Source: Chloroflexota bacterium (GTDB taxonomy: Bacteria; Chloroflexota; Dehalococcoidia; UBA2979). From it: DNA of 29,098 nucleotides. The DNA is taken from positions 1 through 29,098 of the forward strand of contig JAQCIU010000039.1 of assembly GCA_027593235.1 (NCBI GenBank), written 5' to 3'. Of this stretch, positions 1,884-21,333 are shown piece by piece. The notes beneath the pieces are model-generated. The model saw only the letters and a program-made list of their open reading frames with translations. It had not been told where the DNA came from and did no database searches. The translations under genes were made by a program, and so were the position numbers. Position 1 is the stretch's first letter; each line of letters begins with the position of its first letter.

Positions 1884-2477
1884 CTATGCCACCATTACGA
1901 CCGTCACGGCAGTGCCGCGGAATCGATTTGCGACGGTCATCGAGTCTGGTCCAATCGACTGTCCTGTCTGGTAGAAGCCGTGATCCGAGTGTATTTCTAG
2001 CAGTCGACCTGGAGATCCTTCGACTAGATCTGACAGTTCGTGCAGGCCTATCCCGCGGTGCCGATCCCCGGTGCTCGTAGTTCCTTCCTTCACGGCGTCG
2101 ATGATCGCAGCCTCGGCATCGGCTGGCTCGCGGCCAAGCGACTCTGCGATCCCCCGCCCTGGATCGGCCACGGCGATCTCGATGTAGTCAGTACGCAGCC
2201 CCTGCGACTGCATGTACCGCTGTTGGACCACAGCAAATCCGCCTACTGCGGACCCTGCGTGCTGGACGACATTGTTCGCTGCCTCCGCGAGCACTGTCGC
2301 CGTGTCCTGCACGAGCGACTTCGAGAGCCCGTGATCAAAGAACAGGTCCGGCAACTCGTCCGCCATTCGCTCGACGTCAGTCTCGCTTCTGAATGACCTC
2401 ACGGTGAGCAATGGGAGGATTCGCCTGACGCCCCTGGGGTCCTCGTCGAGGTCGTGCACCCCTGTGAACGTCTCTAG
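1884..2477 (-). pseudogene. GHKL/HATPase_c (anti-sigma-kinase-like) ATP-binding protein, 5' end cut off by the IS
   Basis: N box EAANNVVQHA, G1 box IAVADPGRGI, G2 box RGIGL, and terminal GTAVTV. The frame is open up to the CTAG insertion site and continues beyond the IS to an ATG at 3884. Confidence 0.75.
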
Positions 2478-3787
2478 CAGGGTGCTGAAGAAGCGCCGTT
2501 GAGGCCGGAATTGAGGAATGGGGGCGGATTCGAGGCGCCCCGATGTTTTGGGTCGCCTCGGTTCATGCTTGCGGTGCAGCGGTGAGCGTCCGATGTCGGC
2601 CGCAGGGCACAGTTCGCCTACAGCGGAGCGAGCTCGAGTTTGGCGAGGCGCACCAGGTTGTAGGCCGCAGCGGTGAATTCCAGCCAGTGGCGATTGCGTT
2701 CGAGCCCGACGAAGCGCAGCTTGCGCCCGCCGCCCACGGTCTTCACCCAGCCGTAGACCTGTTCCACCAGCTTGCGCCGCCGCAGGCTCTGCCCGTACCC
2801 GACGTGCCGCGTGGTGCGCCGATCCACCGCGCTGCGGCGATGGGTATCGTTCTGCGCCACGTGTGGGGTCACGCCACGTGACCGCAGCTGCGCCACGAAA
2901 TCGTGCGTGTCGTAGCCCTTGTCGGCACCCAGCGTCACACCACCAGCGGTGCTGCGATCGAGCATCAGCAGCGCCGCCTCACGCTCGGCGGTGCCGCTCG
3001 CCGTGGTCAGCTCGACCGCCAGCACCAGCCCGTGCCGATTCTCGGTCAGCAGATGCCCCATGTAGGAGAGCTTCGCGGCCTGGCCTGCCCCCTTCTTGAA
3101 GAGCCGCGCCTCGGGGTCAGTCGTGGAGACGTGCGTGTCTCGGCTGCGCTGCTGCCCGCGGAAGTCCACGTCCGGGTTGCGCCCGCCACCTGGCGGCGGG
3201 TCCTGCTCGTCGCGTGGCCGGTAGCTCTTGAGCGACGCCCACGCCTCCAGCAGTGTCCCGTCCACCGTGAAGTGGTCCGCGGAGAGCAGTCGTCGCCGCC
3301 GCGCCTCGGCCACCACCTCGGCGAAGAAGGCGCCGGAGACGTCGTGCGCGAGCAGTCGCTCACGGTTCTTCGAGAACGTGGAGGGATCGAACGGGTCATC
3401 GCTGACGTTGAGGTCGAGGAACCACTTGAAGAGCAGGTCGTAGCGCAGCCGCTCGCAGAACTGGCGCTCACTGCGAATCGAGTACAGCGCAATCAGCAGG
3501 CTCGCCTTGAGCAGATGTTCCGGCGGGATCGAGGGGCGGCCGCGCTTGGCGTACATCGCGTTGAACAGTGGCGAGAGTCGCACCAGTGCCGATTCGACGA
3601 TCGGCTTGATGCGACGGATCGGGTGGTCCTCGGGGATGAATGAGTCCGGCGTCACCGCCAGAAGCATGTTCGCCTGACGTTCAGCGTCACCTCGCACAGG
3701 GCACCTCCAGTCCGTGCCCCCGCCAGCGCGATTCTACCGCCCAACAGTCCCCCCGACGATCCCCGCCAGCCCTTTTTCAGCACCCTG
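2478..3787 (-). mobile_element. IS5-family insertion sequence, 1310 bp, complete
   Basis: Terminal inverted repeats CAGGGTGCTGAAGAAG (2478-2493) and CTTTTTCAGCACCCTG (3772-3787), 15/16 match. CTAG flanks both sides (2474-2477 and 3788-3791). One transposase ORF. Confidence 0.93.
2618..3697 (-). CDS. IS5-family DDE transposase (359 aa)
   Basis: N-terminal GRPSIPPEHLLKA...SIRSERQ, catalytic-region motifs VDGTLL, LGADKGYD and RRKLVEQVYGWVK, and YNLVRL. GGAGG RBS upstream of the GTG start. Confidence 0.95.
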   Translation of the reverse strand: MRGDAERQANMLLAVTPDSFIPEDHPIRRIKPIVESALVRLSPLFNAMYAKRGRPSIPPEHLLKASLLIALYSIRSERQFCERLRYDLLFKWFLDLNVSDDPFDPSTFSKNRERLLAHDVSGAFFAEVVAEARRRRLLSADHFTVDGTLLEAWASLKSYRPRDEQDPPPGGGRNPDVDFRGQQRSRDTHVSTTDPEARLFKKGAGQAAKLSYMGHLLTENRHGLVLAVELTTASGTAEREAALLMLDRSTAGGVTLGADKGYDTHDFVAQLRSRGVTPHVAQNDTHRRSAVDRRTTRHVGYGQSLRRRKLVEQVYGWVKTVGGGRKLRFVGLERNRHWLEFTAAAYNLVRLAKLELAPL

Positions 3788-9525: not shown

Positions 9526-10146
9526 ATGACGGCGACGTCCACCCTGACCCGCAAGGAAGCACCGAAGACCGGCGACTCGGTCGTCACACCCGAACGCTAT
9601 GCGACTGGCATGACGACATTCGCGCAGTGGATGGCCTCGATCGAGAAGAACGCGGAGCTGTTCCAGCGACACTACGACGAGTTCACGCCCACGCCCCACG
9701 ACATCGCGGCGCTGAAAAAGTACGCCGACGAGCGTGGCGTGAAGGCGCTGATCCTTGGTACCGACTGGTGCCCGGACGTGTGGCGCGGCCTGCCGGTCGC
9801 CTGCAAGATCGCGGAGCAGTCCGGCATGGAGCTGCGGATCTTTGAGCGCGACGCCAACTCGGACATTATGTCCGAGTTCCTCAAGCAGGGTGAGTTCGAG
9901 TCGGTCCCGACGATCGTCCTGTACGACGGCGACGACAACTACCTGGGCCACTGGATCGAGCGCGCCGACCAGGCCAACGCCGAGATGGCACCGCTGCGCG
10001 AGATCATGGCCGGCAAGGAGCGCGACACCCCGGAGTGGGACACCGCGCGCGCGCAGTACATGGAAGAGACGTGGTTCCTCGCGGAGGGCTGGCGCCAGGC
10101 GCAGGTCCACGAGTTGCTCGCGCTGGTCGCTGAGGCGCTCGACTAG
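9526..10146 (+). CDS. thioredoxin-fold protein (Thioredoxin_9-like, single-Cys WCPD motif)
   Basis: GGAGG RBS before ATG 9526, DWCPDV, ELRIFERD, cis-Pro loop SVPT, and LGHWIER. Confidence 0.82.
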   Translation: MTATSTLTRKEAPKTGDSVVTPERYATGMTTFAQWMASIEKNAELFQRHYDEFTPTPHDIAALKKYADERGVKALILGTDWCPDVWRGLPVACKIAEQSGMELRIFERDANSDIMSEFLKQGEFESVPTIVLYDGDDNYLGHWIERADQANAEMAPLREIMAGKERDTPEWDTARAQYMEETWFLAEGWRQAQVHELLALVAEALD

Positions 10147-10175
10147 CCCTCGACCTGCTTCGCGCGATCACAACA

Positions 10176-10202
10176 AACGGGCCGCCCAATGGGCGGCTCG
10201 TT
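10176..10202. terminator. intrinsic terminator between convergent genes
   Basis: AACGGGCCGCCC-aat-GGGCGGCTCGTT stem-loop with A-rich and T-rich flanks. Confidence 0.75.
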
Positions 10203-10237
10203 CTGTGTGTGCCGAAGGCGGGTGCCGAGGCCGGGCG

Positions 10238-10831
10238 CTAGCCGCGGTGGCGGACCGGCTCGTCCTCGTACTCGAACGTCTCGTCGTCGTCGCCGTTGAG
10301 CGATGGGCTCTCCGACGCGGCGGCGAACTCGCTGGCGACCCGCTCGAGGTCGAGCGGTGGCTCACGATCGACGCTACGCGCCTCGGCCCGGGAGGGTCGC
10401 TGCGGTTCGTCGAACGACAAGCGCTGCTCGCGAGCGACGGCCTCGGATGGCGGTGGCACCGGCGCGGCCGGCGTCATCAGTCCTCGCGAGGTGTTGTCGC
10501 CGCCGCCGCTGGGCCGGCGCGGATCGGTCTCCTGGATCGAGCCCAGCTCAGAGAGCAGGACTTCGCGCTCCAGCAACCGCAGGTAAGCGTCTTGCAGGGT
10601 CTCCGGCGGCCGCAGGGCCGCGTAGATGGGCAGGCTCACGAGCGGGAAGACGATCGCGATCGCCACAGCGATGAGCTGCGAAACGGGGTCTCGGGTCCGA
10701 GCGCGGATGTCGCGGTATACCCACAACACCGAGGTCGCCCAGAGCACGATCAGGTAACCGCCAACAAGCGTGCCGGAAAGGCGCGCTGTCGCTTGCCAAT
10801 CGCCTCCGGGCCATCCAATGAGCGCGTCCAC
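10238..10831 (-). CDS. hypothetical membrane protein (two to three N-terminal TM segments, disordered acidic tail)
   Basis: GGGAGG RBS before GTG 10831. Contains LWATSVLWVYRDIRART...IVFPLVSLPIYAALRPPETL (PLDc_N-like hairpin pattern). The ORF-track extension to 11482 overlaps another gene and looks non-coding. Confidence 0.75.
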   Translation of the reverse strand: MDALIGWPGGDWQATARLSGTLVGGYLIVLWATSVLWVYRDIRARTRDPVSQLIAVAIAIVFPLVSLPIYAALRPPETLQDAYLRLLEREVLLSELGSIQETDPRRPSGGGDNTSRGLMTPAAPVPPPSEAVAREQRLSFDEPQRPSRAEARSVDREPPLDLERVASEFAAASESPSLNGDDDETFEYEDEPVRHRG

Positions 10832-10992
10832 GCGCGACCTCCCCGGTACTCCGCCCGTCGAACAGGCTAGCACGCACGTGTCCGGCGATCTGCGGGTTGC
10901 GCGAGCTGAGCGCTGACGCCCCGCCGACGGTTCCAGCGGCCAGTCCCAGCGGACGGGGGCCGCGCAACGCGCACGTCTGGGGCGGTCCCTGA

Positions 10993-12546: not shown

Positions 12547-14742
12547 ATGACCACTACCCAAGACGTCCTGAACGAGGCCCAACAACGCGCGGTCGAGCTA
12601 CCGGGCGGGGGGCTGATGATCCTCGCGGGGCCGGGGTCCGGGAAGACGCGCGTGATCGCGCACCGGATCGCCTACCTGGTCGAGGAGTTGGACGTCGCGC
12701 CGTGGCGCATCCTTGCCGTCACGTTCACCAATAAGGCCGCGAAGGAGATGCGCGAGCGCGTCGAGGGCCTGTTGGGCGACCGTGCGCGCGACCTGACGAT
12801 GGGGACGTTCCACTCGGTCTGCGCGCGCATCCTGCGCCGTGACGGGCAGGAGATCGGGCTCCCCAACGACTTCGCGATCTACGACACCGACGACCAGATG
12901 TCGCTGGTACGCAGCATCGAGAGCGAGCTGCAGATCGATCCGAAGCGGTTCCCACCTCGACAGGTGCTGTCCGCGATCTCCTCCGCGAAGAACGAGCGCC
13001 GGGACGTCGCCGCGTACGAGCGCGAGGTGGGCTCGTACTTCGAGGAGATCGTTGCGCGGGTCTACGCGAAGTACCAGGCGGCACTGGTGCGCAACGGCGC
13101 TGTCGATTTCGACGACCTGCTGGGCAAGACGCTGGAGCTGTTCGAGACGAGTGACGCGACGCGGCTGAAGTACGCGGACCGCTACCTGCACACACTGGTG
13201 GACGAGTTCCAGGACACGAACCTGGTGCAGTACCAGCTCGCGCGGCAACTAGCCTCGGTGCACGGCAACATCACGGCGGTCGGGGACCCGGATCAGTCGA
13301 TCTATTCCTGGCGCGCGGCCGACATCCGCAACCTGCAGCACTTCGAGCGCGACTTCGCGGGCGCGGAGGTGGTGCTACTGGAGCAGAACTACCGCAGCAC
13401 CGGCCACATCCTGAGCGCCGCCCACGCGGTGATCGACCGCGCCGAGGGCCGCCCCGAGAAGCACCTCTGGACCGAGAACCCGGACGGCGAGCGGATCGTT
13501 GCCTACGAGGCGCCGTACGGGGATGACGAGGGCCAGTTCATCGCCGGCGAGATCAAGCGCCTGAAACGCACGGCGGACTACCCGTATAGCGCGTTCGCGG
13601 TGATGTACCGCACGAACGCCCAGTCGCGCGCGATCGAGGAAGCGTTCATCCAGCAGAGCGTCCGCTACCGCATCGTTGGCGGTACCCGCTTCTACGACCG
13701 TCGCGAGATCCGCGATCTGGTGGCGTACCTACGGCTGATCCACAACGAGTACGACTCGGTCGCCTTCGACAGGATCGTGAACGTGCCGACGCGCGGCATC
13801 GGGGCGAAGTCGACCTCGGACCTGCTCGCTGCGGCCGTGGAGCTTGGCCTGTCCCCGCTGGCCGCCGGGACGCGCGCCGCCCGAGGCGACAACGATCTGC
13901 CGGCGCTGCGCGCGAACATCCAGACCGCGCTCTCGCTCTTCGTCGCGCAGATCGACGAACTGGCGGTGGCCCGTCAGACACTGACCGTGGCCGAGCTGCT
14001 CGACCGCATCCTCGCGATGACCAACTACCGCGCCTACCTGGAAAAGAGCGACGAGGAGCACCACGAGGTGCGCTGGGAGAACGTGCAGGAGCTGCGTAAC
14101 GTCGCGGCCCAGTACGAAGAGGTGGAGACGGACGCCACGCTCGCCCAGTTCCTGGAGGAGGTCGCGCTGGTCTCCGACATCGACGATCCGAGCGCGGATC
14201 AGCCCGATGCCGTCACGCTGATCACGCTGCACGCCGCAAAGGGCCTGGAGTTTCCGGTGGTCTTCATGCCGGGCATGGAGGAGGGCATCCTCCCGCACAT
14301 GCGCGCGATCGATGACCCGCCGCAACTCCAGGAGGAGCGGCGTGTCTGTTATGTCGGGATGACTCGTGCACGGGAGCGGCTGTACCTGACCAATGCGCGC
14401 CGCCGCATGAGTTATGGCAATTTACGAGCGAATCCGCCCTCGCGATTCCTCGGCGATCTGCCGGAGGCGGACGTGCAGACGCCGCTTGGCACGAACCGCG
14501 CCGCGCCACGCACCGGTGGCGGGCTACGCGCCGCCGCCGCGGCGCGCCAGGCGAAGCATGTGGACGCCACCTCGCCGTCGTTCTCGCCGGGGGATCGGGT
14601 CCATCACGCCACCTTCGGCAACGGTGTTGTGATCGCGTGCGTGCTCGTGCCGGGGGACCAACAAGTGACGGTGGCGTTCGAGGGCAAAGGGGTGAAGAAG
14701 CTGATGCTCTCGTTTGCCCCGATTCGGGCGATCGGCGCCTGA
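12547..14742 (+). CDS. pcrA: ATP-dependent DNA helicase PcrA/UvrD
   Basis: AGPGSGKT, TFTNKAA, VDEFQDTN, VGDPDQSIYSWR, LEQNYRST, TLHAAKGLEF and EERRVCYVGMTRA, plus a C-terminal Tudor-like domain (GDRVHHATFGNGVV). Confidence 0.97.
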   Translation: MTTTQDVLNEAQQRAVELPGGGLMILAGPGSGKTRVIAHRIAYLVEELDVAPWRILAVTFTNKAAKEMRERVEGLLGDRARDLTMGTFHSVCARILRRDGQEIGLPNDFAIYDTDDQMSLVRSIESELQIDPKRFPPRQVLSAISSAKNERRDVAAYEREVGSYFEEIVARVYAKYQAALVRNGAVDFDDLLGKTLELFETSDATRLKYADRYLHTLVDEFQDTNLVQYQLARQLASVHGNITAVGDPDQSIYSWRAADIRNLQHFERDFAGAEVVLLEQNYRSTGHILSAAHAVIDRAEGRPEKHLWTENPDGERIVAYEAPYGDDEGQFIAGEIKRLKRTADYPYSAFAVMYRTNAQSRAIEEAFIQQSVRYRIVGGTRFYDRREIRDLVAYLRLIHNEYDSVAFDRIVNVPTRGIGAKSTSDLLAAAVELGLSPLAAGTRAARGDNDLPALRANIQTALSLFVAQIDELAVARQTLTVAELLDRILAMTNYRAYLEKSDEEHHEVRWENVQELRNVAAQYEEVETDATLAQFLEEVALVSDIDDPSADQPDAVTLITLHAAKGLEFPVVFMPGMEEGILPHMRAIDDPPQLQEERRVCYVGMTRARERLYLTNARRRMSYGNLRANPPSRFLGDLPEADVQTPLGTNRAAPRTGGGLRAAAAARQAKHVDATSPSFSPGDRVHHATFGNGVVIACVLVPGDQQVTVAFEGKGVKKLMLSFAPIRAIGA

Positions 14743-14752
14743 CCACCGACGA

Positions 14753-14907
14753 CGAGACTGTCGTCGCAGCCGCGCGGGACGATAGTCATGGCGGTTCGGG
14801 ACGATCGTCGTGGCATACCGGGACCTCCGTCACCGGCGGACGGGACTTCCGTCGCAGCGCCGCGGGACCATCGTCGTGGCCGCGCAGGACGATCGTCGGG
14901 TCCGCTG
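14753..14907. repeat. array of seven degenerate 22-bp units, each with a C-GGGAC-N4-GTC core (probable phased transcription-factor sites)
   Basis: Cores start at 14754, 14776, 14798, 14820, 14842, 14864 and 14886. GAC-N4-GTC is invariant in all seven; the linkers vary. Confidence 0.88.
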
Positions 14908-15114
14908 TCAGGCCGCTGACGGGTCTTACACCCACCTGACGACCGCGTCCCAACCCGCTCTCGTGCTGACCTTCCGCTGACTCCTGCCGTGGCGCGCGCA
15001 ATAGCAGGGGACCACCTGCTGCGAATCCGTCCTCGGCCCGGCGACGCTGTGTTGGTGCGGACCTCAACTCGCGTTGAGTCGACCGCATTAGCGCGCTGCG
15101 AAGGGACAACAGAC

Positions 15115-17548
15115 GTGGCAACCATCGATCAGCTTCTGGGGCGGTTCCGCCTGCGAACCAAATTCGCGGTCATGCTCGCCGTACCGCTCATCGCACTCAT
15201 CGGATTCTCGGTGATGCAGATCAGGAGCAGCGCGGGGACCGTCAGCGAACTCAATTCGCTGAGCGATCTGTCCGACCTCGCGGTCACGACCAGCGCGTTC
15301 GTTCACGAAACCCAGAAAGAGCGTGGCATCACCGGCCTCTTCCTCGGAAGTGGCGGGACGGAGTTCGGGGACAAGCTGGCTGATCAGCGCGTCCTCTCCG
15401 ACGAACACCGAGCAGAGCTCACGACCGCCCTCGATCACTTCGATGCGGCCGCCTTCGGGAGCGAGTTCAGCGAGACGGTCGCGGCGAGCCGAGAACTGAT
15501 CGAGGGGATCGACGCGCACCGCGCCAGCGTGGACGCGCTCTCCCTGACCGGCGCCGAGGGCCTCGGCTACTACACGCGCGTCAACGGATCGCTCCTCAAC
15601 GTGGTGTCGCACATCGGTGGGCTCAGCAACAACGCCGAGCTTTCGCGACTGGTCGCTAGCTACGTCAACTTCTTGCAGTCGAAGGAGCGCGCCGGCCAGG
15701 AGCGCGGTGTGATGAGCACCGTGTTCACCATCGGCCACTTCGAGGGCGCCTTCTTCAACAACTTCTCCCGGATCGTGACCGAGCAGGACACCTACGAACG
15801 CGTCTTCGAGTCCTTCGCGACCGCGGAGCAGATTGAGTTCTACAACGCCACCGTCTCCGGCGAAGGCGTCGACGCCGTAGCTGAGATCCGCACGCTCGCC
15901 TTCGAGGGCTCGACGGCGTCGGACCTGGGCGTTGACGCCGTCACCTGGTTCGACGCCATGACGGTGAAGATCAACCTGCTGAAGACCGTCGAGGACCACC
16001 TGGCGGAGGGCCTGATCTCGGAGGCGCACGCGCTGCGTGATGACGCCAAGTCCGCCCTGATTCAACTCTCGATCCTCGTTGTCGCGCTCACGGCGTTCTC
16101 GATCGCCGGGGCGTACGTGGTCTCGCGATCGCTGTCGGCGCAGATCGCCCAGCTCGTCGCGGGCTTGCGGTCGATGGCCGGCGGATCGACGAAGTACCAG
16201 GTGAGCGTGGAGACCTCCGACGAGGTAGGGGAGATGGCGGATTCGTACCGCGCACTGCAGGGCTACCTCAGCGAGATGGCGGGCAACGCCCGCCGTATCG
16301 CGGACGGCGACCTCAGCGGCGAGGTACACCCGCGTTCGAGCGAGGATGAGCTGGGTGTCGCCTTCCAGACGATGACCCGCAACCTGAACCGCGTACTGGG
16401 CGAGGTCAGCGATGCCGCTGTCCGTCTGGACAGCTCACGCACCGAACTGGGCCGCGTCGCCAACGACGCCGCGCATGCGACTGCCGAAGTTGCCAACTCG
16501 ATCGGCCAGGTGGCCGAGGGCAGCAGCGACCAGGCGAACCGCGTGCAGGAGACCACGACCAGCATCGGCAACCTTGCCGAGTCGATCTCACAGGTCACGC
16601 AAGGGGCGAGCCGCCAGAGCATCTCGATCGACGAGGTCAGCGCGCTGGCAACCGGCGTCGCAGACGCCGCCTCGCAGGTCTCGAGCTCCGGCAAGCAGGC
16701 ATCGAGGGCAGCGGAGCGCGCGGTTTCGACCGCCGCCGAGGGCGCCGAGAAGGTGCGCGGCACCGTTGCCGGGATCGAGCGCATCAAGGAGAAGGTGGAC
16801 GCCGCCTCCAAGGAGATCGCCACGCTTGGCGCTCGCTCCGCGGAGATCGGCAAGATCGTCGCGACGATTGATGACATTGCCGCGCAGACCAACCTCCTGG
16901 CGCTGAACGCCGCGATCGAGGCGGCACGCGCGGGCGAGCAGGGACGCGGCTTCGCGGTCGTCGCCGACGAGGTGCGCCAGCTCGCTGAGCGGGTGACCCG
17001 CTCCACGCAGGAGATCGCCAGCCTGATCGAGGGCGTCCAGGGCGGCGTCGACGCGTCGGTCGCCGCGATGAACGAGGGCGCCGCGGAGACGGAGGCCGGT
17101 ACGCGTGCCGCCGCTGCCGCCGGTGATTCGATCGAAGGCATCATCAATGCAGTCGACGGCGTCACCGCCGAGATCGACGAGATCGGCAAGCAAGCCGCCT
17201 CGCTCGGTGAATCCGGCGCGCAGATGGTGAAGCAGATCCAACAGATCCGGGTGATCGCCGACGAGAACGCCGCGGCCGCCGCCGGTATGGCCGACAGCGC
17301 CGACGAGGTCGCGGAGTCGATGACCTCGATCGCCGTGACGTCGGAGGAGAACAGCGCCGCCGCGGAGCAGGTCTCGGCGACGGCGGAGGAGATGACCGCG
17401 CAGGTGGATCAGATCACCATGGCGACCGAGCAGCTCGGCGCCATTGTCGGAGACGCTGACCAAGCAGATCTCGACGTTCAAGCTCGCCCGGTCGAGCGGC
17501 CACCTCGAGATCGTCGGCGGCACGGAGGCGAAGCGACCCGCCGCCTAG
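15115..17548 (+). CDS. methyl-accepting chemotaxis protein with NIT (nitrate/nitrite-sensing) domain and HAMP domains; apparent +1 frameshift near the 3' end
   Basis: TM-NIT ([19 protein letters not shown])-TM-HAMP ([14 protein letters not shown])-signalling domain ([38 protein letters not shown]). Removing one base at 17443-17446 gives the typical end ...[13 protein letters not shown]... with TAG at 17546-17548. As assembled, the ORF runs to 17652. Confidence 0.9.
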
Positions 17549-17596
17549 TCCCGCGTCGCAGTGCCACGGCGTCGTTGGCGCCGGGCGAGACACCAA

Positions 17597-17629
17597 CAGG
17601 CCCCGGACCGTTTGACGGTCCGGGGCCTG
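17597..17629. terminator. intrinsic terminator between convergent genes
   Basis: CAGGCCCCGGACCGT-ttg-ACGGTCCGGGGCCTG, a perfect 15-bp stem followed by GTTCGTTTT. Confidence 0.85.
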
Positions 17630-17648
17630 GTTCGTTTTACGCGGACGG

Positions 17649-18797
17649 TTAGATCCGGCGCGGCTGCTGGCCTCGATCGGTCGTGTCGCCGACCAGCGCG
17701 CTCAGCTCCAGCCGCTTCAGCACGTCCCCGCGTGTCAGCAGGCCGACGAGCCGGCCATCGTCGAGCACGGGGAGCTGATTGACGTCGTGCTCCTGCATCA
17801 GGCGCATCGCCTCAAGGATCGAGGTGTCCGGACGGACGGTGTGAACCTCGGTCGCCGCGACCATCGCCTCGCGGACGGTCGTCTCGGCCCAGCGGGCGCG
17901 CGGGACGTGCGTCAGGTCGCTGATCGTGATCAGCCCGGAGACTCGACCGATGCTCTCCACGAGGAAGGCACGCTCCGCATCACCGAGGATCCGATCCTCG
18001 GCGAGCTGCTGCAGCGACCACGCCTCGGGGACGGGCACGGGCGGCGGGCGCATCACGTCTGCCGCCACGACGTCCTTCAGCGCGCGTTCCAGCAGCACCT
18101 GTGCGTAGGCCTGCTCCGAGGCGTTCTTGAGGAAGAGCCCGATCAGGACGTACCAGAGCCCGCCGATGCCCAAGAAGAAGACCCAGACGATCCCGCCGAC
18201 GATCATCATCCAGGCGATCGCCTGACCGACGGTGGAGGCGATCCGCGTCGCCTTGGTCAGATCGTGCACCCGCCCCCAGACGATCGAGCGAAACACCCGT
18301 CCGCCGTCGAGCGGGAACCCGGGCAAGAGGTTGAAGAACCCCAACGCGAAGTTGATCAACGCGAGATACCCGAAGACAACTGCGACACCCTGATCGCGCG
18401 TAACCAGCCAGAGCAGGCCGAACAGGATCGAGAGCACCCACGAGCTGAGCGGCCCAACGATCGCGATGAAGAACTCCTGGCGCGGAGAGCGCATTTCGCC
18501 GGCCATCTGCGAGACGCCACCGAAGACGAACAGCGTGATCGACGGGACCTGCATGCCGTAGTGCAGGGCAACGAACGTGTGCGAGAGTTCGTGGATCAAC
18601 ACGGAAGCGAAGAACAGTACCGAGGAGACCACACCCGCGGCCCAGTATTGATTCTGCGTCCAGTCCTTTTCGTAGTCCGGGTAGACGGTGTCGGCAAGCG
18701 ACCACGCGATCAGCGTGAAGATCACGACCCATGACCAGTGCACCCGGATCGCGACGCCGCGAACGCGACCGATCACCAAACCTGAATTGAAATCCAT
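17649..18797 (-). CDS. site-2 protease (peptidase M50) with tandem CBS domains (Rip3/Rv2625c-like architecture)
   Basis: HELSH zinc motif, [21 protein letters not shown] and a C-terminal CBS pair. TATCCT -10 lies 7 nt before the ATG (leaderless). Confidence 0.93.
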
Positions 18798-18833
18798 GCG
18801 TCCGAGGATACGCGCCGCACGGGCAGGGCCATC

Positions 18834-18847
18834 GGGCCGATCGTCAC
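18834..18847. promoter_or_regulatory. DosR/NarL-like box upstream of the M50-CBS protease
   Basis: GGGCCGATCGTCAC, centred about 43 bp upstream of the leaderless start (activator position), resembles the array units. Confidence 0.5.
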
Positions 18848-18874
18848 CGTCGGCCCGGACCCTCCGGCCGCCGG

Positions 18875-19741
18875 CTAGGCGATCAGTGCCTGGAGCGCCG
18901 CGTCATCGAGGGTGGTGCGCATCAATTCACCCGCGCGTTCCACTTTCGACTCGCCGGCAAACGGCGAGGTGCCGAAGGTGCCCTCGATCGCGTGGACCGT
19001 CGAGGGGGTGTCGCCGCGGGTCAGCAAGAGCGTCGTGTCGCGGCTGGCCGCGGCCCGATCGAGGATGTAGGGACTGGGTGCGCCGCCGCCGCTGAGGATC
19101 AGGCACTCGGTGCGGGCCGCGATCGCGGCGAGCGCGAGATCGACCCGACCGCCGCGGGTGACGACCGCGCTGCGCGGGAACCGCTCGAAGTAGGTGTCAG
19201 CCGCGTCGTGGGAGATCGCGCCGACCAGGATGTAGTCGCAGACCGCGTCGTCGCCGCGCTCGGAGCGGGAGAGCACCTCTGCGCCGCTTGCCGCGATCAG
19301 CTCCGCGACGCGTGGCGCAGCCAGCGCGCGGTCTTCCGGCAGCAGGCCCGGGCGCGCATCGCGGGTGCGCGTCTCGATCACCAGTGCCGCGCCGTCCGTC
19401 GCCGCGCCGCCGACCGTACCGCCGGCCGGCGTCACGAGCACCAATTTGGCGCCGAGCTGTGTCGCCAGCGCCATCGCGTCGGCGCCGCTGGGAGCCTCGA
19501 GGATGACGACGCCGTCGGGGCTGCCGGGACCGGTCGCCTCGACGGGCGTGCCGCTGCTCGCGGCGAACTCCAGCGTGCCGAAGACCTCGGCATCCGCGAG
19601 CGCGCGAGCGTCGTCCGTACCGTCACGCAGGCGCTCGACGCGGACCGCGTGACCGGCGTGGGCCAGCCGGTGCGCGAGCCCGGTCGCCACGGTGGTGGCA
19701 CCGGCGCCCGGCTCGGTCGCTGCTACGAGGATCAACGCCAT
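18875..19741 (-). CDS. DRTGG-domain protein (BioD-like N-terminal domain of phosphotransacetylase family)
   Basis: Degenerate P-loop (ATEPGAGATT), VVILEA and the DRTGG-type segment AVVTRGGRVDLALAAI...CLILSGG. Confidence 0.78.
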   Translation of the reverse strand: MALILVAATEPGAGATTVATGLAHRLAHAGHAVRVERLRDGTDDARALADAEVFGTLEFAASSGTPVEATGPGSPDGVVILEAPSGADAMALATQLGAKLVLVTPAGGTVGGAATDGAALVIETRTRDARPGLLPEDRALAAPRVAELIAASGAEVLSRSERGDDAVCDYILVGAISHDAADTYFERFPRSAVVTRGGRVDLALAAIAARTECLILSGGGAPSPYILDRAAASRDTTLLLTRGDTPSTVHAIEGTFGTSPFAGESKVERAGELMRTTLDDAALQALIA

Positions 19742-19957: not shown

Positions 19958-21216
19958 CTACTCGCGTTGGACGAAGAACGCGCCTTCCATTCCGCCCTCC
20001 CGGTGTCCCGGGATACTGCAGACATAGGTGAACGGCCCGCCGCGGTCCGGCACGGTGAAGGTCACCTCCGCGGTCTCGCCGGCTTCCGCCTGGACGAACA
20101 CGCCCAGCTCTGTGATCTCCAGGTTGTGGAGGATCGCGCCGTCGTTTCGCAGCTTGAGCGTCACCTCGGTGCCTGGATCGAAGGTCGCCTGAAGCGGGTC
20201 GAAGGCGAACTCGGAGGCCACGACCTCCAGCTCGGCCTTGCCATCGCTCGCGGCCACCGCCGGCTCGGCCGTCGCCTCGGCGGTCGGCTCCGGGGTAGCC
20301 GCCGCGTCAGCGGCTGCCGCAGCCTGTTCCTCGCCATAGGAGGTGTGGTCGGTGTAATCGAGCAGCGTCAACATGCCGCCGGGGTATGCCCCTCGGTTGG
20401 TGACGTGGTTGAGGATGTGGCAGTGGAAGGTCCACGTACCGGGGTTGTTACCCACCACTTCCACGTCGATGGTCGTGCCCGGAGCCACGTCCACCGTGTT
20501 CTCGAAGTACGTGTCCTTGAGGTCGTTCCCGTCGACCGAGACCACCTCGAACTGGGGCCGTGCAGGTGCATCGGGTGGTGCTGCTGGCCCGCGTTGATGA
20601 AGCGCACGCGGATCTTCTCGCCCATCGCGATCTTCATGAACGTGTCGTCGTCCGCCAGCGTGGCGGGGAAGGCGTGGCCGTTGATGGTGAACAGCCCACC
20701 GATTTCGTGGAGCACCATCGTGTACTCGCGGTCGTAGCTGTCGCCGGCGCGGCCGCGCTCACGCACGACCAGCGGCCCGACGAGCCCGCGCGCGAGCTGC
20801 TGCACCGTGTTCGCGTGCGTGTGATACATCGCCGTGCCGGCCTTTTCGAGCTTGAACTCGTAGGTCCACGAGGCGCCGGGCTCGATGATCGGCTGCGTAA
20901 TGCCAGGGACGCCGTCCTGCTCGTTCGGCACCTCGATGCCGTGCCAGTGGATCGTCGTGCCCTCGGGCAGGTTGTTGGTCAGGTTGACGCGCAGGGTGTC
21001 GCCGACGCGGGCCTCGATCATTGGTCCCGGGTACTCACCGTTGTAGCCCCAGACCTCGACGGTTTCGCCGTCGACGACCTGCCAGTCGACCACTTCAGCG
21101 GTCAGGTCGATTTCGATCAGGTCGCCTTCGTCCGGATCCGCGCAACCGATTGCGGCCACACCGAGGATCAGGGAGATCATGACGCCGAGAATCGGTCCGA
21201 TTCGTCTCACAGACAC
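19958..21216 (-). CDS. lipoprotein two-domain multicopper oxidase with a C-terminal cupredoxin domain; split by a 1-bp frameshift at about 20554-20557
   Basis: GGAGG RBS before GTG 21216 and lipobox AAIG-C. First frame has TTIHWHG, MYHTH and HHPMHLHG. Second frame has QFEVVSVDG, WTFHCHILNH...GGM, an Ala/Pro/Glu linker, then HNL...YVCSIPGHREGGM. Confidence 0.88.
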
Positions 21217-21304
21217 AGATTCGCCTCCACTAGCGCCTCGCCGTCCCGGCGATCCAGACGCGTGGTCATCGTCGACGGGGCGATCACTACGGGGCAGTCC
21301 ATCC

Positions 21305-21333
21305 GGGACCTTCGGCATGTGACTAAAGTCACT
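21305..21333. promoter_or_regulatory. tandem regulator boxes upstream of the multicopper oxidase
   Basis: GGGACCTTCGGCAT (21305-21318) abuts the palindrome GTGACTAAAGTCAC (21319-21332). The latter also reads TGTGA-N6-TCACT, a Crp/Fnr-like site. Confidence 0.7.

Follow-up and report, generated by a model that had tools for sequence, protein, structure and literature searches.

Between a helicase gene of the pcrA type and the gene of a nitrate-sensing chemoreceptor we found a row of seven 22-bp units. The question raised by this locus is whether the row is a platform on which a protein assembles or the decaying remnant of a tandem duplication. The window, i.e., the whole stretch of DNA that was analysed, comprises 29,098 nt of a high-GC contig (61–74% per kb) from an uncultured Chloroflexota bacterium. 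An earlier note on this DNA had described the units as palindromic GGGAC-N4-GTC boxes with merely different linkers, had proposed that selection acts on motif and spacing, and had suggested regulator dimers of the DosR/DevR kind lined up on one face of the helix. The features in and around the array are compiled in Table 1.

Table 1. Features of the pcrA–MCP region (positions in the window)
Feature	Position	Strand	Description
pcrA/uvrD-type helicase gene	12547–14742	+	731 aa; Pfam UvrD-helicase (8.7e-86), UvrD_C, PcrA_UvrD_tudor
Hairpin	14747–14766	+	8-bp stem, 4-nt loop; directly after the pcrA stop; 3' arm within unit 0; no T tract
Array of seven head-to-tail 22-bp units	14753–14906	+	same orientation as the MCP gene; consensus CGGGACnATCGTCGnGGCCGCn
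Non-repetitive spacer	14907–15114	+	208 nt, array to MCP start
NIT-HAMP-MCP chemoreceptor gene	15115–17652	+	845-aa ORF; NIT (3.6e-58), HAMP, MCPsignal; GTG start, GAAGGGA upstream
Terminator-like hairpin	17597–17640	+	perfect 15-bp stem (100% complementary), 3-nt loop, then GTTCGTTTTA
M50 peptidase gene with CBS domains	17649–18797	-	convergent with the MCP gene; 60% identity to L001:2842–3999

The seven units could be read directly from the sequence, exactly as they had been written down before. The stop codon TGA of pcrA (14740–14742) is followed by 11 nt (14743–14753) and then by the GAGAC of the first unit at 14754. With the conserved C taken as column 1, the units (numbered 0 to 6) start at 14753, 14775, 14797, 14819, 14841, 14863, and 14885, and the last one ends at 14906. 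The columns C1, G4, A5, C6, G11, T12, and C13 are invariant in all seven units, and G2, G3, C10, G17, and C18 are kept in six of the seven. The claim that GAC-N4-GTC and the preceding C never vary and that the period never slips was thus borne out: no indel was found over the 154 bp of the array, against 35 departures from the consensus. A perfect GGGAC-N4-GTC is present in five of the seven units, the outer two being degenerate (GAGAC and AGGAC). The term palindromic had to be given up, however, as the consensus C-GGGAC-NNN-CGTC-R-Y is asymmetric and a full palindrome is absent.

The lag-22 self-identity reached 0.64 over 132 nt at 14752; the mean of the window is 0.27 (sd 0.047), and no other place exceeds 0.45. 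At lags of 21 and 23 the array gave background values (0.25 and 0.27). TRF reported four overlapping rows of period 22 between 14775 and 14905. The ends of the array are sharp: neither the 22-mer before 14753 nor the one after 14906 resembles the units. The string GGGACNNNNGTC matched six times in the window with both strands counted, at 17902 inside the M50 gene and, on the + strand, at 14776, 14798, 14820, 14842, and 14864, in steps of exactly 22 bp. The expectation is 2.24 matches per window, and at least six were obtained in 5 of 100 shuffles, in none of them in phase. A second contig (12,840 bp) contains a 100% identical antisense frame of 173 aa that spans the array region; the array is therefore not an accident of assembly and has equal length there. 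From these results the array is confirmed to be real, in exact phase, and locally unique.

How the array arose can be seen from the units themselves. The columns outside the core, i.e., the linkers, have an identity of 0.41 between units (random pairs, 0.28), so that the description of the linkers as simply different does not hold. In addition, units 0–2 resemble units 4–6 over a block of 60 nt with 80% identity at an offset of 88 bp. Because of the residual linker similarity and the repeated three-unit block, the units must descend from one ancestor. These data show that one 22-bp unit was duplicated in tandem, in part as a block of several units, and that the copies have since diverged to a mean identity of 64% without any indel. 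Since tandem duplication gives a constant spacing by default, the exact spacing of 22 bp is accounted for by this origin.

We considered whether the core columns have nevertheless been under constraint. They are 0.91 identical between units compared with 0.41 for the noncore columns, a descriptive contrast, as the core was picked from the same data. Permutation of the mismatches over the cells of the alignment indicated heterogeneity between columns (p 0.014–0.016) in a test that ignores shared ancestry. In simulations of neutral tandem duplication, of which the runs at the observed mean identity (0.64 ± 0.04) were kept, seven or more invariant columns arose in 18–27% of the Yule-type and in 4–7% of the star-type runs. 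The conserved columns are, however, clustered in contiguous blocks and not scattered (column permutation p 0.013–0.065): for runs of invariant columns p was 0.065, for runs of columns with no or one mismatch 0.025, and for the lag-1 autocorrelation 0.025 and 0.013. This clustering is the sole feature that hints at a constraint beyond the neutral simulation; the lack of indels points weakly in the same direction. Constraint on the core columns is suggested by these data. The proposal of selection on motif and spacing goes beyond these data: the clustering of the core hints at it, whereas neutral duplication can yield the number of invariant columns and gives the exact spacing by default.

Outside the array the motif shows no enrichment. 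When up to one mismatch was allowed, 21 matches were counted in the 29 kb, 7 of which are the array itself, against 24.2 expected. The best match to the position weight matrix (PWM) of the units outside the array is a near-copy of unit 6 at 9900–9921 on the - strand (score 17.4, first 17 nt identical). It is situated inside a Thioredoxin_9 gene, where it encodes VPTIVL, and was dismissed as coincidental. The heptamer CGCTGAC occurs twice in the spacer between the array and the MCP gene, but it has 22 matches window-wide (11.8 expected), mostly in genes, and is not specific.

The domain matches of the flanking genes agree with the gene context given in the earlier note, with pcrA upstream and a nitrate-sensing chemoreceptor downstream. 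For the helicase the best NCBIfam model is TIGR01073 (pcrA) with 864.5 bits, under its cut-off of 911.2. The N-terminus of the chemoreceptor aligns from residue 1 with a homologue (P0003, 69% identity over 777 aa), and the start of the gene is confirmed by the end-to-end alignment with homologues. Over the sensor region the MCP orthologues P0002–P0014 are 51–68% identical, and the 90% cluster of the protein comprises four sequences from four contigs. The spacer between pcrA and the MCP gene amounts to 372 nt and is among the longer gaps of the window; the array ends within its first 165 nt. No sigma-70-like site was found in 14300–15500, and no sigma-54-like or sigma-28-like site on the + strand of 14907–15114. 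The hairpin directly behind pcrA has a folding energy of -11 kcal/mol (z -1.37), a value equalled by 22 of 200 shuffles and hence not significant on its own.

At the other end of the MCP gene, the last 68 codons of the ORF (17426–17652) do not align with the homologues. The homologous tail (...RPAA) continues in the +1 frame up to a TAG at 17546–17548, corresponding to a protein of about 811 aa as in the relatives. A 1-nt indel near 17446 must therefore separate the two frames; it may be genuine or stem from an assembly error. The terminator-like hairpin with its T-rich tail begins 49 nt after the homologous stop and lies just beyond the stop of the M50 gene. Judged from its sequence, it resembles an intrinsic terminator that closes the MCP unit, and it might work bidirectionally.

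To place the locus among relatives, genome contigs were scanned with PcrA, and the 80 loci listed, 1.27 Mb in all, were compared; the window's own genome did not appear among them. The closest among the loci listed belongs to a Chloroflexota metagenome-assembled genome (L001), whose PcrA is 73% identical; the other 79 reach at most 54%. In L001 (2700–5057, compared with 14743–19741 of the window) a gap of 21 bp separates pcrA from a convergent M50-CBS gene, behind which a DRTGG-domain gene is located. These two genes are 60% and 58% identical to their counterparts in the window, of which the DRTGG-domain gene lies at 18875–19741. The pcrA–M50 interval of L001 contains neither an MCP gene nor an array. 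Consequently, the window differs from L001 by one block, present here and absent there, that consists of the array, the 208-nt spacer, the MCP gene, and the terminator-like hairpin. By this comparison of gene orders the array is tied to the MCP gene and does not form a conserved attachment to pcrA. As the other 79 listed loci have no shared synteny, both an insertion in the window and a loss in L001 are compatible with the difference. Neither two phased units nor a NIT-MCP gene was found in any of the 80 listed loci.

The DosR/DevR box, with which the units had been compared, belongs to a regulator of the NarL/FixJ family from Mycobacterium tuberculosis; the host of the array is a member of the Chloroflexota. 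The motifs given for this regulator read GGGACT and TGTCCC (PMC13486717, excerpt). In an excerpt of PMC3177182 the 18-bp DevR box is described with C7 in all 47 mapped sites and with conserved G3–G5, and the secondary (weak) Dev boxes keep G4, C7, and G12. According to the same excerpt DevR binds cooperatively to two to four tandem boxes in helical phase, and two to four adjacent boxes are present at all promoters of the regulon. The box centres are at -42.5 and -63.5, i.e., 21 bp apart, and the phasing is needed for cooperative filling; one of the four-box targets is narK2, a nitrate-related gene (PMC3177182).

In several respects the array conforms to this description. The left half reads GGGAC in five of the seven units (GAC in all seven), the C-N4-G centre is retained with C6 and G11 invariant, and adjacent sites follow each other at about two helical turns, 22 bp over six steps here and 21 bp in the Dev promoters. 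The right half departs from it. Dev boxes are palindromes of 18–20 bp with GGGAC on both strands, whereas the units show GTC in all seven cases and GTCCC in none. Seven units stand against two to four boxes, and the proximal Dev box borders the -35 region of its promoter at a distance of about 33 to 42 bp to the transcription start, whereas the array is at least about 222 nt away from the MCP start codon. The match to the DosR/DevR box thus holds for the left half, the centre, and the tandem layout at about two turns, and fails for the right half.

Other protein-binding repeats share part of these features. In Streptomyces, BldC coats variable numbers of same-oriented direct repeats cooperatively; its units are 9 bp long with an AT-rich core (AATTxxxxC), in contrast to the GC-rich 22-bp units of the array (PMC5859096, excerpt). 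The FNR/CRP-type nitrogen-oxide regulator HcpR recognizes the site TTGACnnnnGTCAA (PMC1274295, excerpt). Common to both are the GAC-N4-GTC centre and a link to nitrate or nitrite, but the flanks are GG...RY in the array and TT...AA in the HcpR site; as far as described in that excerpt, regulators of the HcpR type use single sites and not arrays of seven.

The idea that the regulators would sit on one face of the DNA was not upheld. At 10.5 bp per turn 22 bp correspond to about 2.1 turns, so that each unit is turned by about 34 degrees relative to the one before it and the last by about 205 degrees relative to the first; the outermost sites thus face nearly opposite sides. A bound row would, by this arithmetic, spiral around the DNA.

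Taken together, we favour, with a probability of roughly 0.4, the explanation of a protein-binding array that is filled cooperatively and whose DNA belongs to the MCP gene. It would act as double-stranded DNA presenting seven candidate sites of the same orientation, with the core C-GGGAC-NNN-CGTC, to a sequence-specific protein. Neighbouring copies of the protein would touch about two helical turns apart and thereby fill the sites cooperatively. The bound row would then control how the chemoreceptor gene is transcribed: it could serve as an upstream platform for activation or repression, or it could shield the gene from pcrA read-through. By analogy, the best motif match for the protein is a response regulator of the NarL/FixJ type (GerE helix-turn-helix) of the DosR/DevR kind, and each unit may combine a complete half-site (GGGAC) with a weak one (GTC), in the manner of the low-information secondary Dev boxes, whose filling is only cooperative. 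The array forms the upstream edge of a self-contained unit made up of array, 208-nt spacer, NIT-MCP gene, and terminator-like hairpin.

This protein-binding explanation is supported by the exact phase, the clustered columns, the absence of indels, the noncoding nature of the array, the missing support for an RNA (see below), and the DevR-like layout. It gains further support because array and MCP gene are present or absent together in the comparison with L001 and because the MCP gene has a terminator-like hairpin of its own. It is weakened by the outcome of the neutral simulation, the residual similarity of the linkers, the lack of GTCCC in any unit, and the number of boxes. It is also weakened since the start codon is about 222 nt away, no promoter could be placed, the helical position shifts by about 34 degrees with each unit, the window has no surplus of the motif, and a response regulator gene is missing from the 29 kb, where neither a Response_reg nor a GerE domain was found with Pfam among 34 ORF translations scanned. 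The functional reading rests on the motif resemblance and modest statistics, and the case that the array is more than an old decaying duplication is weak.

The more specific proposal of a seven-box operator filled by a DosR-like redox- or nitrogen-oxide-responsive regulator, which would form one insertable unit with the chemoreceptor and give a switch-like control of nitrate taxis, appears rather unlikely. If it were true, the array would exceed in length every phased array known for this class of regulators and would be the first one tied to a chemoreceptor. As a binding platform the array would be a natural example of cooperative loading of very high order (seven sites) on a chemotaxis gene, and it would open a first way into the gene regulation of an uncultured, motile lineage of the Chloroflexota. 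A limited search of the literature on the motif strings and on arrays at promoters of chemoreceptor genes brought up no published description of this array.

Nearly as likely is that the array is a neutral, decaying minisatellite. The copies would have arisen by slipped-strand duplication and drifted apart, the core would reflect ancestry and chance, and the whole would be mere spacer DNA. The share of neutral runs with at least seven invariant columns, the expected exactness of the spacing, and the visible common descent in the linkers and in the 80% identical three-unit block all agree with this explanation; linkers kept as well as the cores had been named in the earlier note itself as the mark of a plain minisatellite. 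That the motif is not above chance elsewhere in the 29 kb and that the closest listed genome does without the array is likewise in keeping with it. In a typical VNTR the units hardly differ from each other, and their number is variable. The array resembles bacterial minisatellites in being head-to-tail, intergenic, of constant period, and of visible common descent, but the identity among its units is down to 64%, and the second contig shows an array of equal length. Noncoding tandem arrays are known from prokaryotes (PMC6749651, excerpt).

Against a minisatellite stand the clustering of the conserved columns and the absence of indels despite heavy substitution. Such a divergence would also need long persistence in a compact genome, in which most of the listed intergenic gaps are below 220 bp. 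No array of period 22 was detected with TRF in the 1.27 Mb of related loci, a rough comparison as TRF splits even the window's own array, and only 2 of the 16 TRF rows with at least 3.5 copies in these loci have a period not divisible by 3. If the array is nevertheless a decaying minisatellite, it teaches caution: invariant cores, variable linkers, and exact spacing arise fairly often by descent. Such patterns alone are no proof of selection, since the neutral simulation yields them in 4–27% of the runs.

A role at the RNA level is quite unlikely. In this case the array would be transcribed as part of the pcrA 3' region or of a long MCP leader, and GGGAC or GGA would bind a CsrA-like protein or ribosomes. 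GGA is indeed present in six of the seven units, always on the strand of both flanking genes, and the ribosome-binding region of the MCP gene also contains GGGAC, 7 nt before the GTG. This region, considered as a possible eighth site, is not among the top 22 PWM matches and was rejected. The only hairpin shared by the units has no compensatory pair; its pair 2–15 switches between G-C and G-U (three and three of the seven units), which counts among the points for an RNA. CsrA-type RNAs present their GGA motifs in hairpin loops. Here GGA is located in the 5' arm of the sole shared dyad and not in the loop, which speaks against a sponge or leader of the CsrA type. Scans of Rfam with gathering and E-value thresholds gave one chance match (19.8 bits, E 0.13), and the region folds no better than shuffled sequence (z-scores -0.64 and -1.35); folds of the single units gave nothing either. 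A structured RNA was rejected on the grounds of no Rfam family, no folding beyond that of shuffles, and no covariation; moreover, neither a promoter nor a terminator frames the array. To explanations other than those named here we assign a similarly small chance.

Highly improbable is a mobile or replicative relic, i.e., an iteron origin, a plasmid-type centromere, or a Tn7- or Mu-like multi-site end that brought the MCP gene along. Multi-site ends with 22-bp transposase-binding sites exist in Tn7 and Mu, and the array marks one edge of a segment that is absent from the closest listed genome, just after the stop of a conserved gene. For an iteron origin, which has direct repeats of 17–22 bp in tandem, the repeat units themselves would fit. 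Seven 22-bp iterons are the exact layout of the R6K origin, where cooperative binding depends on helical phasing (PMC4980987, excerpt); unit number, length, and head-to-tail arrangement are the same, but the array is chromosomal, situated between housekeeping genes, and its units are far more diverged outside the core. An iteron origin was rejected as no AT-rich stretch (GC 0.62–0.75 in every 60-nt window of 14700–15149), no DnaA box, and no rep gene was found; the DnaA box TTATCCACA had no match with up to two mismatches between 13744 and 17403. Similarly, a Tn7- or Mu-like end or another mobile relic was rejected: no rep, par, transposase, or integrase gene adjoins the array, the motif has no inverted copy at the opposite edge, and comparison with 72,556 plasmid and 50,697 phage records revealed no similarity. 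An active mobile or replicative element is already largely refuted by these results.

A protein-coding array was discarded, as the period of 22 bp is not a multiple of 3 and neither codon bias nor homologues support translation. The ORFs over the array have a GC content at third codon positions (GC3) of 0.63–0.68, compared with 0.85–0.91 in real genes. One frame with a GC3 of 0.81 (14786–14980) scores 0.01 per codon, against 0.54 (sd 0.23) for genes, and falls within the range of off-frame scores (-0.64, sd 0.58, 95th percentile 0.22). A 56-aa ORF (14810–14977, +), which starts at the GTG of unit 2, obtained nine matches with E at most 0.001 among 1.84 billion representatives and none at 1e-10. 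The matched proteins are of the WD40/NHL-type repeat kind with 3–10 short stretches each and none of the ORF's own size; E-values down to 4.8e-9 reflect a weak match to the repeat unit summed over the repeats, as seen in the two of the nine that were inspected. The 111-aa antisense ORF had no match. Translation and a structured RNA, both named in the earlier note as findings that would speak against a binding platform, thus found no support.

Several further observations concern the rest of the window. The sole DNA-binding regulator found is of the ArsR/SmtB type with a helix-turn-helix (3–356, -), 14 kb away from the array. An RsbW-like protein with a HATPase_c_2 domain is encoded at 1884–2459 (-), and an insertion-sequence transposase (DUF772 and DDE_Tnp_1) at 2618–3697 (-), 11 kb from the array and without visible link to it. 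No gene was called with confidence in 951–1883 (933 nt) and in 10147–10992 (846 nt); a part of 10200–10700 shows a strong GC bias at third positions, its scanned translations being without a Pfam match. A multicopper oxidase appears to be split in two ORFs (19958–21318, -) that overlap by 178 nt in different frames. The ORF at 20368–21318 carries Cu-oxidase_3 and Cu-oxidase_2, and the ORF at 19958–20545 the end of Cu-oxidase_2 and a cupredoxin domain, an arrangement that possibly goes back to a frameshift.
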